In this document: positions 26,492-29,900 of the stretch, piece after piece
How the letters are laid out: each line of letters opens with the position of its first letter
How positions within the stretch are numbered: position 1 is the first letter of the stretch
Virus record (IMG/VR): IMGVR_UViG_3300033076_000101
Coordinates: 1 to 34,028 of that record
Origin: a virus
Taxonomy: Duplodnaviria > Caudoviricetes
DNA length: 34,028 nucleotides
Direction: 5' to 3' (one strand)
Program-made: the position numbers and the translations under genes
The notes under the pieces: generated by a model
Told to the model about the DNA's origin: nothing
The model's database searches: none
Seen by the model: the letters and a program-made list of their open reading frames with translations, nothing else

Positions 26492-26845
26492 CTAAATTGG
26501 GTTAAATAACCATGCTGCTGCATAGTCAGGTTTTGGAGTAAATTTATACGATTTTTTAATAGGCTCTCTAGTCTTTAACTTGTATTTCTTGTTGTATTCA
26601 TCCTGACTAATTGCTGAAATTCTAGGCGCATCAGGAGCGTTACCTGTCATGTAATACACAGTAAATTGACCAGGAGTGCGTTCATATTTATGAATATGAA
26701 TTTTTCTACGAAATCGCATCTCTGTGATGTATTTGCAAACCGATGGTACAGACATACCCACAGCATCAGCCATTTGATGCCTGTTCATAGGTTCACGTTT
26801 CATACGTTCAAGTAAATATTCAATTCTTTTTTGTTTTAAATTCAT
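26492..26845 (-). CDS. HTH-domain protein
   Basis: MNRHQMADAVGMSVPSVCKYITEM is HTH-like. C-terminal D.AAAWLFN. Confidence 0.7.
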   Translation of the reverse strand: MNLKQKRIEYLLERMKREPMNRHQMADAVGMSVPSVCKYITEMRFRRKIHIHKYERTPGQFTVYYMTGNAPDAPRISAISQDEYNKKYKLKTREPIKKSYKFTPKPDYAAAWLFNPI

Positions 26846-26854
26846 AGCTTAAAT

Positions 26855-26870
26855 GGGGGATTTCTCCCCC
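26855..26870 (-). terminator. GC-rich hairpin after the micro-peptide gene (weak terminator or stabiliser)
   Basis: Minus strand GGGGGA-GAAA-TCCCCC with a GNRA tetraloop and a short ATTT tail. Confidence 0.6.
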
Positions 26871-26876
26871 TGTTAA

Positions 26877-27005
26877 TTAACGACCACAACCACAAATCAT
26901 TTTGCCGTTTGCGCCTGGTGTGCAACCATAAGGGGCCCAAGTAGGACAAGCTGCAAATGCTGTTGTTGAAACTAACAATACTAAAGTTACAAGTGCTTTT
27001 TTCAT
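26877..27005 (-). CDS. Secreted Cys-rich micro-protein, 42 aa (not in ORF track)
   Basis: Translates as MKKALVTLVLLVSTTAFA-ACPTWAPYGCTPGANGKMICGCGR. AAGGAG RBS and a classic signal peptide. Confidence 0.82.
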   Translation of the reverse strand: MKKALVTLVLLVSTTAFAACPTWAPYGCTPGANGKMICGCGR

Positions 27006-27014
27006 GATTTCTCC

Positions 27015-27269
27015 TTAAAATGGAACATCGTCACTAAGAGTTACATCTCTAGATACAACTCCTTCTGCTGGCTTTTCTTCAGGCGGATTTAAATACGCAA
27101 GAATTTGGCCATCTTTCATAGCAAATAATGGCAAAGATTCAATCTTTAACATTAAGCCATGTTTGGTTTCCATCACTAATCCGATGGTTTGATAACGCTT
27201 TTTAAGCGTGTTTGTTTTTAAGTCAGTATATTCAGATACTGCTGCTTTAACGTAATGGGTAATCGCCAT
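27015..27269 (-). CDS. Small SSB-like protein
   Basis: Beta-rich body with an acidic SSB-type tail (DDVPF). Lies in the recombination operon. Confidence 0.6.
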   Translation of the reverse strand: MAITHYVKAAVSEYTDLKTNTLKKRYQTIGLVMETKHGLMLKIESLPLFAMKDGQILAYLNPPEEKPAEGVVSRDVTLSDDVPF

Positions 27270-27692
27270 TTAACTTCCTTTCATCAATTCAAAAGATTTT
27301 TTAATGCAACAAGCATCAAAAAAATTGTCTACAGTTACATCTAAAACTATCACTTTATTGCGCCTAGCTCTTACTCTATAAGAGCCATAAGACCTAAGCT
27401 CAATTCCTTTAATGCCACATTTATTTGTTTTAAATAAACGCCTATTCATTGATTGTTCTTGTCTAGTTGCCCAATAACAATTTTCTTTTGAATATCCTTT
27501 GTTATTGTCTTTTCTTTCAAGTGTTTCATTTTCTTGTTTAATCCCCATATCTTTTAAAAATACACTAAAAGATTTTCTCCATGTAGGACAAACAGTAATC
27601 CCCCTAGCACCATAATTTTTGTAATACTTATTATTAGGGTTTTCACATCTTTGAATCATGGAAGCCCAAACCCAATAAAGTTTTTTATTCAT
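27270..27692 (-). CDS. HNH-type homing endonuclease-like protein
   Basis: W.SM.QRC.NPN..Y.NYGARGI.VC..W and LER.DNNKGY..ENC.WAT motifs. AT-rich. Confidence 0.85.
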   Translation of the reverse strand: MNKKLYWVWASMIQRCENPNNKYYKNYGARGITVCPTWRKSFSVFLKDMGIKQENETLERKDNNKGYSKENCYWATRQEQSMNRRLFKTNKCGIKGIELRSYGSYRVRARRNKVIVLDVTVDNFFDACCIKKSFELMKGS

Positions 27693-28314
27693 TTTTACCT
27701 TTCATTAAATTTGTTTCATGTTCAACTTCTTCAAGAAATTTAATAACTTCTTTTTCAATTTTTTCTATAAATTCTTCATCTCTTGGCAATCTAACTATTA
27801 AAAGTTGGCTTCTTTGTGGCATCCTAGGATCAAAACTAACAAAATCACACCACTTTCTACCAGTTACAGCCATTTGTGTTTGCATTTGAGTTATGTATTT
27901 TTGTGGGGGCGCTTTCTTTTTAAAATACTCCCAATGTGTGCTACTGTTACAACACTTAATTTCAATAAGACCGTCATCACCAATAAGACCATCAGGACTA
28001 CAACCGAAATTGGCAATAGTAGGATGGTCAATAAAAGCCACCTGATCGACAAAGTTTCCTGTTTCAACTTCATAAGCTACCCTTGCTTGTGGTTCTGTTT
28101 GTGTTCCCCATTCCATCGCTGCATTAGTGTATGATGGCTCAATAGTTCCTGTGCTACGTTGTAACGCAAGTTCTATTAGGTAATTCTGGCGACTTGCAGA
28201 AGGCCCAGTCCTTGTCTGCGCTAGGATGTCAGCTACCCTAGAAGCAGTTACTTTGCCCGCCCTAAGCTCATGCCATTGTTCCGAACCTTGCTCAATATCC
28301 TGAATATTCGCCAT
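27685..28314 (-). CDS. YqaJ/lambda-exonuclease family recombinase nuclease
   Basis: QGS..W...R.GKVTAS, WG...E, SPDGL...EIKC and Y..Q.Q.QM motifs. Confidence 0.92.
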   Translation of the reverse strand: MANIQDIEQGSEQWHELRAGKVTASRVADILAQTRTGPSASRQNYLIELALQRSTGTIEPSYTNAAMEWGTQTEPQARVAYEVETGNFVDQVAFIDHPTIANFGCSPDGLIGDDGLIEIKCCNSSTHWEYFKKKAPPQKYITQMQTQMAVTGRKWCDFVSFDPRMPQRSQLLIVRLPRDEEFIEKIEKEVIKFLEEVEHETNLMKGKNE

Positions 28315-28771
28315 ACAATTCAATCCTTTTTAATTTATATGCTTGATGAGCTTCTTCTAAAGTTTTAAAGCTGCCAATATTTATTGGTTTTTTGTTATAA
28401 GAAATTCTTGCAACAAACCTATTTTTATTTTTTTTAATACCCATTGGTAAATTGCTAGTTTTTTTTCTAAATTTATGATTCCAATTATTTTGAGTAACAG
28501 TTGCTTCTCTTAAATTTTTTAATCTATCGTCTGTTTTTATGCCATTTATGTGATCTATGCAAGGGAATGGAAATCTTTTGTAAGCATATAAAAAAATTAA
28601 CCTTCCTCTTCTGTATGATTTTCCATTTATTTTTATTCTGAAATAATCATTATTTGTAGAAAATCCAGCTTCTTTCCCAATTAAATCAGAATGATTTTTA
28701 GGTGGATTTTTCCAAAAAATTTTTCCATTTTCTACATCTATATCAAACAAATTTTCTAATTGTTGAATCAT
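28292..28771 (-). CDS. HNH endonuclease with an AP2-like C-terminal domain
   Basis: IDHINGIKTDDRLKNLR and IGSFKT.EEAH.AY motifs. AT-rich. Confidence 0.88.
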   Translation of the reverse strand: MIQQLENLFDIDVENGKIFWKNPPKNHSDLIGKEAGFSTNNDYFRIKINGKSYRRGRLIFLYAYKRFPFPCIDHINGIKTDDRLKNLREATVTQNNWNHKFRKKTSNLPMGIKKNKNRFVARISYNKKPINIGSFKTLEEAHQAYKLKRIELYGEYSGY

Positions 28772-29508: not shown

Positions 29509-29811
29509 TCAATCTCCAATAAGGTCAATTAAAGAAATAATCTCTTTGTTGCAAGCTTGTTTGATAAGCGATAGCAACTCAGCATCGTTACCGTTTACAT
29601 AAGCAAGCATTAGTTGTTTTTGGATTTGACCAACTTTGTCGTACAAATCGCTGTCTGATGGATCAACTGTGTATTGGTTACGATTGCCATAACTAAGCTT
29701 TTGACCTTTTTTAATAGCGTCAATAACTGAATCTTCTAATTCTTCCCATTGCTCTTGAAGTTCGTCTTGACGTGCTAACCAGGCGTTAGTTTGAGATGTT
29801 AGGAAGTCCAT
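29509..29811 (-). CDS. Hypothetical protein
   Basis: 100-aa ORF, TAATG-coupled within the early-left operon. Confidence 0.7.
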   Translation of the reverse strand: MDFLTSQTNAWLARQDELQEQWEELEDSVIDAIKKGQKLSYGNRNQYTVDPSDSDLYDKVGQIQKQLMLAYVNGNDAELLSLIKQACNKEIISLIDLIGD

Positions 29812-29900
29812 TAGAAACCCCCTGTTCTTAGGATGTATGTAACAGCTAGGATGCTGCCACCAATTAAACCTAATAAGGCTGCGTAGATTACGTCTTTCAT
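29811..29900 (-). CDS. 29-aa single-TM peptide (not in ORF track)
   Basis: Translates as MKDVIYAALLGLIGGSILAVTYILRTGGF. AAGGGA RBS; its stop overlaps the next ATG. Confidence 0.7.
   Translation of the reverse strand: MKDVIYAALLGLIGGSILAVTYILRTGGF

Follow-up and report, generated by a model that had tools for sequence, protein, structure and literature searches.

An optional phage gene encodes a conserved four-cysteine mini-protein with a predicted export signal and a probable role at the host envelope

The peptide gene lies between an SSB-like gene and a weak winged-HTH-like gene. The window analyzed here, a virus record of 34,028 bases, contains a podovirus-like structural module with a capsid about 53% like those of Stenotrophomonas phage BUCT555 and Myxococcus phage Mx8. 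Pfam and PHROG scans identified Sak, YqaJ and two HNH genes in a leftward unit that diverges from a Cro-like gene, and these neighbors suggest that the peptide gene belongs to an early operon. The peptide ORF occupies positions 26877-27005 on the minus strand and encodes 42 amino acids. Its sequence agrees with that in a preliminary description of this DNA, and the features reported there, namely a 42-codon ORF with an AAGGAG ribosome-binding site, a signal-like N-terminus, four Cys and a GAAA hairpin, are all present. The Shine-Dalgarno motif AAGGAG (27011-27016, minus strand) ends 5 nt short of the ATG and overlaps with the stop codon of the preceding gene, which makes translational coupling of the two genes likely. 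No promoter-like site is found between them. Across the peptide family, 101 of 113 distinct upstream regions contain a Shine-Dalgarno-like motif. Residues 1-18 (26952-27005, minus strand) represent a predicted Sec signal peptide with a predicted signal peptidase I cut after Ala-Phe-Ala. The predicted 24-residue mature peptide, encoded with its stop codon at 26877-26951 (minus strand), follows the pattern C-P-x4-Y-x-C-x9-C-G-C, possesses a net charge of +2 and is predicted to form a beta-hairpin. The combination of a ribosome-binding site, a signal-like N-terminus and at least four Cys is found in a single ORF of the window and in none of 200 shuffled windows.

A 6-bp GC stem capped by a GAAA (GNRA) loop starts 6 nt after the peptide stop (26855-26870, minus strand). 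Its folding energy is modestly unusual (z -1.85, with 7 of 200 shuffles equally stable), it lacks a U-tail on the sense strand and a terminator scan calls the opposite strand only. The upstream neighbor is an 84-amino acid gene (27015-27269, minus strand) that comes after Sak and YqaJ and carries an acidic Pro-Phe tail. It appears SSB-like by position and tail only, with no match in Pfam, PHROG or Foldseek searches, and its model is all-beta at low confidence (pLDDT 59). The downstream 117-amino acid gene (26492-26845, minus strand) gave weak HTH matches to Pfam HTH_Crp_2 (E 0.009, under the cut-off) and to phrog_142 'Ren-like' (E 0.004) and represents a neighbor, not a dedicated partner. The leftward unit opens with a 29-codon hydrophobic ORF (29811-29900, minus strand) that has a GAAGGG-type ribosome-binding site and possibly encodes a small membrane peptide.

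The peptide gene is real, with more than 200 distinct relatives under purifying selection. All 20 candidates of a single-sequence search were relatives of the peptide. An alignment covering 102 viral stretches yielded 84 relatives; 80 loci were retained, and narrower alignments brought 13, 24 and 78 further loci. At 50% identity 63 clusters were obtained, two of which were unrelated repeat proteins. The pooled set comprises 219 distinct sequences after exclusion of six proteins (the two repeat proteins, three with odd N-termini and one mis-clustered ABC transporter) and of two further sequences that did not match the pattern. The search pattern required four Cys, so their presence in all 219 sequences is by construction; a fifth Cys occurs in none. 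The spacing between the first and second Cys is 7 residues in 219/219 and that between the second and third is 9 in 213/219. Pro directly follows the first Cys in 216 sequences and Tyr occupies the position two residues ahead of the second Cys in 218, while the Gly and Lys of the turn are retained in 212 and 215, respectively. Net charge is +2 in 172 and +3 in 36 of the 219 and is never negative, and His and acidic residues are very scarce in the family. Across 85 non-independent pairs of 85-99.5% nucleotide identity, pooled pN/pS was 0.10 in the mature part compared with 0.18 in the signal, and one relative (L002) encodes a mature peptide identical to that of the window despite a pS of 0.67. 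The expectation of a conserved, selected, exported-type four-Cys mini-protein with homologs of fixed Cys spacing is thus borne out.

As had been proposed, the peptide is unannotated: no named family was matched in Pfam, PHROGs, NCBIfam or PADLOC, and a PDB sequence search returned matches to the signal peptide only. There was no match among 50,697 annotated phage records, and the ESM Atlas contained only hypothetical clusters (at 0.83-0.84), with none for the mature part. NCBIfam PA0050 (NF047882), a 45-position small-protein model, gave a weak full-length match to one relative (E 0.013). The window peptide scored 11.1 bits (E 0.34) and the best of 17 members scanned 15.7 bits against a cut-off of 45 bits, and two papers checked for PA0050 list it in expression tables only. 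Scoring of 7,998 candidates yielded a single longer match, the same peptide with a long extension at its N-terminus that probably reflects a mis-called start, which is weak evidence that the peptide is not fused to other domains.

The product is very probably an exported disulfide peptide. Features of a Sec signal cleaved by signal peptidase I, that is, a basic N-terminus, a hydrophobic core and small residues at -3 and -1, are found by pattern, with Ala at -1, two residues before the first Cys, in 216/219 and Ala, Val or Ser at -3, four before it, in 219/219. The signal sequence is variable, yet the cleavage motif and the Cys spacing are fixed across the family. A micro-lipoprotein processed at a FAAC lipobox had also been suggested. 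A strict lipobox is present in only 31 of 219 relatives, the residue right before the first Cys is one disallowed for lipidation (K, H, T, Q, R or V) in 13, and an Ala-x-Ala type site one residue ahead of the lipobox cut position is conserved in 218. The family pattern consequently fits a signal peptidase I cut after residue 18 and not a lipoprotein. The structure prediction proposed in the preliminary description, carried out with AlphaFold2 on 21 sequences, placed a helix at residues 2-18 over the signal and two strands at 26-30 and 36-40, giving a beta-hairpin in the mature part (mean pLDDT 78, pTM 0.37). The register of this hairpin, not a computed bonding pattern, would pair Cys28 with Cys38 and Cys20 with Cys40. 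Foldseek and VIA matched no solved fold; the one viral structural match is an uncharacterized homolog (A0A6J7WJU4).

The peptide gene is optional and mobile. An exchangeable cassette (26846-27033, minus strand) is replaced by 27 other bases in close relatives, in which the upstream stop overlaps the HTH start. Contigs of DNA run X9 and of RNA-library run X19 join position 27034 to 26845 via these bases. Both forms are carried by X9 (contig depth 9 with the peptide, in the unchanged window form, and 58 without) and by X8 (34 with and 14 without), and X19 contains mainly the peptide-less form; the two RNA-type runs contribute contigs with small shares and give no reading on transcription of the peptide gene. 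A further contig (L334/L415) has no peptide gene; its YqaJ, SSB-like, HTH and endolysin genes and the ORF next to the HTH gene show 75-90% identity, and here too the stop of the upstream gene overlaps the HTH start. The HTH gene had been noted directly downstream of the peptide, but because close relatives carry the same gene without it, the HTH protein is not a dedicated receptor. The hairpin also proved not to be specific to the peptide gene, since an identical GAAA copy precedes the HTH gene in L413, after an unrelated gene and without the peptide. One contig of run X12 shows a loop change that keeps the GNRA class. Contigs of close relatives skip both window HNH genes (27270-27692 and 28292-28771, minus strand), with joints at 27271-27919 (X19) and 28277-28761 (X9); such behavior would be expected of mobile endonucleases.

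Other small exported-type proteins occupy the same slot after SSB-type genes. For the 63 distinct loci of the first set we read the gene immediately before the peptide, which carries an SSB-type tail in 27, is RusA-like in 16 (a label from motifs, with no Pfam match for the one representative scanned), encodes a six-Cys exported-type peptide in 2 and is of another kind in 18. The SSB-type genes span several families, including PF00436, PF10991, DUF669, phrog_18154 and unnamed ones. To survey the slot itself we read 56 loci, obtained from 79 relatives of the 84-amino acid gene after dropping 20 duplicates and 3 truncated loci. In 18 of these loci the occupant belongs to a second, unnamed family of four-Cys exported-type peptides, in 9 it is an 88-amino acid lipoprotein-like gene and in 5-6 (one doubtful) a 95-amino acid signal-bearing gene. 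The studied peptide fills the slot in 2 loci, and 21 have a gene that is non-exported or unassigned. An exported-looking mini-protein is hence found in 34-35 of 56 relatives, counts that come from related genomes and do not represent independent events. The second four-Cys family shows the spacing C-x5-C-x4-C-x5-C, begins its mature part with Gln and comprises 76 clusters at 90% identity without a Pfam domain; it is exemplified by L335:695-823 and 17 other distinct loci among L334-L412. The 88-amino acid lipoprotein-like (L409:1750-2016) and 95-amino acid signal-bearing (L025:350-637) occupants likewise gave no Pfam match. A six-Cys exported-type family with a C-x-x-C-C motif (L272:547-693, L003:3819-3989 and L005:2773-2943), unnamed in PHROG, NCBIfam and Pfam, stands in tandem with the studied peptide in L003 and L005 and precedes a structured RNA element in several phages. 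Homology of the studied peptide to the six-Cys and second four-Cys families was considered and rejected, as alignments span the signal and extend no further than the beginning of the mature part, and the families are treated as unrelated. The two four-Cys families never occur together in 31 genomes (16 and 5 carriers), an uninformative observation given that this sample was picked by slot.

The structured RNA element belongs to the end of the SSB unit and not to the studied peptide. It consists of a conserved stem, an internal purine-rich loop and a variable top and follows the peptide stop in 28 of 136 distinct loci. Two of nine consensus pairs show changes on both sides in sequences picked by motif, Rfam gave no match and the core is estimated to occur in about 900 viral stretches. 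Of 116 distinct examples of the RNA, 2 come after the studied peptide and 13 after another small, Cys-rich peptide of exported type. An SSB-type gene with a Pro-Phe or Pro-Trp tail precedes the RNA in 15 examples and some other gene in 76, a group with many members that appear SSB-like by eye, while 10 examples had no upstream ORF. Examples are L002:4135-4210, L031:4135-4205 and L212-L331, while the window contains only the simple hairpin at this position. A tRNA gene is present directly after the peptide gene in L044 (4143-4215) and about 1.1 kb later in L002 (5261-5333).

A GC-rich branch of the family looks like a moron. The branch is probably alphaproteobacterial, as judged from GC content and a GcrA neighbor. 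Terminator-like sites were called after the stop codon in 32 of 51 GC-rich loci compared with 6 of 85 others; the window copy is inserted but coupled to its upstream gene. Neighbors of cI, cro or XRE type are found in at least 9 of 56 GC-rich loci (L096, L113, L115, L146, L160, L161, L164, L173 and L176), integrases or resolvases in L094, L109 and L174, lysis genes in L092 and L097 and terminases in L139 and L170, and many other neighbors in this branch have no database match. AraC regulators flank six GC-rich loci. Peptide copies adjoin such a regulator in L140 (3814-5896), L145, L150 and L136, and an outer-membrane beta-barrel gene is next in L140 and L145. In L182 an Acb2/Tad1-family anti-defence gene (1939-2214, PF24729) lies directly upstream of the peptide, as does a gene of the same PHROG family in L108 (3735-3980). 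Copies in cellular genomes are rare. Searches of such genomes, in which 16-24 candidates per genome were scored, returned true matches in 1/301 (six more covered the signal region only), 2/401, 1/401 (five more lay in long ORFs) and 1/151. A chromosomal copy in Comamonadaceae (L082:4883-6126) resides on a small island with a RelE/ParE-type pair and an XRE gene, flanked by PEP carboxykinase-like and hydrolase-like genes. A distant chromosomal homolog (L206:1522-1674, G357) follows lolCE-lolD-like genes and was not found with the L206 query in 150 other genomes of its family.

The peptide is not bound to one virion type or endolysin type. The capsid family of the window is present in 5 of 21 carrier records and 9 of 18 non-carriers. 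No tail- or ejection-gene link to the peptide was detected in 31 genomes, a small sample with highly divergent genes, and no gene family is common to all 16 carriers. An M15 endolysin is present in 8 of 16 carriers and 0 of 15 non-carriers (p 0.0025, uncorrected), the latter being closely related and chosen through one gene. As a partner of the peptide this endolysin was rejected: carriers use three unrelated endolysins (M15 in 8, GH19 in 3 and GH24 in 1, with none found in 4), and L334 encodes a 90% identical M15 enzyme without the peptide.

Context favors an envelope-directed role over signaling. The product of this optional phage module would be exported and trimmed to a 24-residue, disulfide-stapled periplasmic hairpin: the anatomy of the peptide points to the periplasm, the slot and the moron-like branch to an optional envelope effector, and the spread across unrelated virions to a host target rather than a phage-specific one. 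The near-invariant Tyr26, Gly34 and Lys35 and the charge of +2 could form a binding face, as judged from the hairpin register, through which the mature peptide would bind a host envelope component met by many unrelated phages. Action on such a component is, on balance, probable. Binding may in turn block entry of competing phages, with target and outcome both suggested by context. The peptide shares with superinfection exclusion systems the trait of an envelope-targeted product, here predicted, of an optional gene. Exclusion was chosen because it is a recurrent function among characterized phage genes with such a profile, as excerpts of the sources describe them (PMC3594210; PMC10883804; PMC7650644); morons are independent units, some of which encode exclusion proteins (PMC3594210, in excerpt). 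We propose this outcome tentatively and hold it to be possible rather than probable. Characterized exclusion factors are usually matched to the entry proteins of their own phage, as SieA is to the P22 ejection proteins (PMC10883804) and Spackle to gp5 (PMC7650644), again according to excerpts; no such link was seen among the 31 genomes, a point against exclusion. In addition, the 21 slot occupants that do not look exported indicate that the slot may be a simple recombination hotspot, and for the GC-rich copies beside AraC regulators and ordinary bacterial genes exclusion is not obvious.

Several other roles were weighed against exclusion. The peptide could bind a periplasmic sensor, protease or defence effector and so protect the infecting phage itself through counter-defence or damping of envelope stress. 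An early-operon position after SSB-type genes, the Acb2/Tad1-family genes directly upstream in L182 and L108 and the occurrence across unrelated virion types are in line with this role. However, the adjacency stems from one related group of loci, PADLOC returned no defence-system match, and stand-alone, terminator-bounded copies beside repressors and integrases suggest expression in lysogens, so we consider counter-defence unlikely. We give little credence to a diffusible signal or host-ligand mimic, which would require release of the stapled peptide from the cell and its recognition by a receptor of a phage or of the host. The layout of the precursor, a signal followed by a short mature peptide, recalls peptide pheromones, and the RNA in 28 of 136 loci and the AraC regulators at six GC-rich loci also count in its favor, but no gene family is shared by all 16 carriers, no TPR receptor was found among 20 window ORFs scanned, the HTH gene and the RNA are mostly found where the peptide is absent (2 of 116 RNA loci come after it) and a 2.4-kDa peptide exceeds the general porin size limit. 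The arbitrium system of SPbeta-like Bacillus phages (AimP/AimR/AimX) likewise has a short precursor that combines an export signal with a small mature peptide, as far as the excerpted source describes it (PMC11323111), whereas the studied peptide has four Cys, is associated with Gram-negative-type hosts and is accompanied by no cognate receptor gene. Models of AimP, Phr and NprX gave no AimP_fam match to the window peptide and only sub-threshold matches, mainly in the signal region, to distant relatives. The view that the peptide does not resemble arbitrium peptides is upheld by this result, by the lack of an adjacent TPR receptor and by the varying neighbors.

A host-fitness role as a periplasmic peptide that uses free thiols for redox chemistry or for binding copper, silver or zinc would account for the four fixed Cys with their C-x-C pair, the small size and the occasional chromosomal copies. 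The even Cys count and the hairpin register instead fit two disulfides, thiols are oxidized in the proteobacterial periplasm, His and acidic residues are nearly absent and the scanned neighbors include no metal-resistance genes, which leaves this role improbable. Animal antimicrobial peptides include cationic beta-hairpins with disulfides, a likeness that would suit a lysis helper or an antimicrobial peptide disrupting the outer membrane; regulation of the endolysin is a related option, and the excess of M15 endolysins among carriers is compatible with these roles. Phages without spanins can use a peptide disruptin, and that of phiKT (gp28) is, like the studied peptide in its predicted action, a small cationic phage peptide acting on the envelope (10.1101/515445, in excerpt). 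Gp28 is, however, a 56-amino acid amphipathic helix needed for lysis (same source), while the studied peptide is predicted to form a hairpin and its gene is optional and not part of the lysis unit. In the window it lies on the strand opposite to the lysis genes with a charge of only +2, and the varied endolysins of carriers and the M15 enzyme retained in L334 without the peptide speak against a lysis function, which we regard as very improbable. Anchoring as a micro-lipoprotein via the first Cys, like Cor or Llp, is scarcely credible: FAAC in the window copy fits a relaxed lipobox, but the family-wide cleavage pattern described above does not, and lipidation would leave three Cys.

Characterized phage envelope proteins differ from the studied peptide in size and design. 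T4 Spackle is a larger, helical folded protein, HK97 gp15 and P22 SieA are inner-membrane proteins and Cor is a lipoprotein. Like the studied peptide, for which export is predicted, Spackle (gp61.3) is phage-encoded and periplasmic with a cleaved signal, and it guards infected cells from later infection (PMC7650644, in excerpt). It binds the phage's own gp5 lysozyme; the studied peptide, a predicted hairpin of 24 residues, shows no sequence or fold match to it and is not tied to one virion type. HK97 gp15, Cor of HK022, N15 and phi80, and SieA are likewise small, optional, horizontally moved envelope proteins encoded in independent transcription units, as excerpts of the sources describe them (PMC3594210; PMC10883804), whereas the studied peptide is predicted to be soluble and disulfide-stapled and matches none of their families. 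A literature search covering the openings of abstracts found no description of the peptide family, the slot or the RNA; small-gene catalogs may list such ORFs without a function.

The phage envelope effectors known so far comprise membrane proteins, lipoproteins and folded domains; a soluble disulfide hairpin of 24 residues would represent a far smaller design. A broader generalization, which we put forward as doubtful, is that phages of freshwater and soil proteobacteria carry at least three unrelated, undescribed families of exported, disulfide-stapled micro-peptides of ribosomal origin, swapped in the slot between the SSB gene and the structured RNA and inhibiting conserved Gram-negative envelope machines or receptors. 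If true, these would be the phage counterpart of venom and host-defence hairpins, natural constrained-peptide inhibitors. The RNA element, estimated in some 900 viral stretches and absent from Rfam, offers a second lead. Members of the family are small enough to be synthesized, and more than 200 natural variants share four fixed Cys and four further near-invariant positions. Unrelated counterparts, at least two in number, occur at the same slot or position, and the question of which products phages place in the periplasm during early infection thereby becomes directly testable. Such peptides could yield natural scaffolds that bind Gram-negative envelope proteins.
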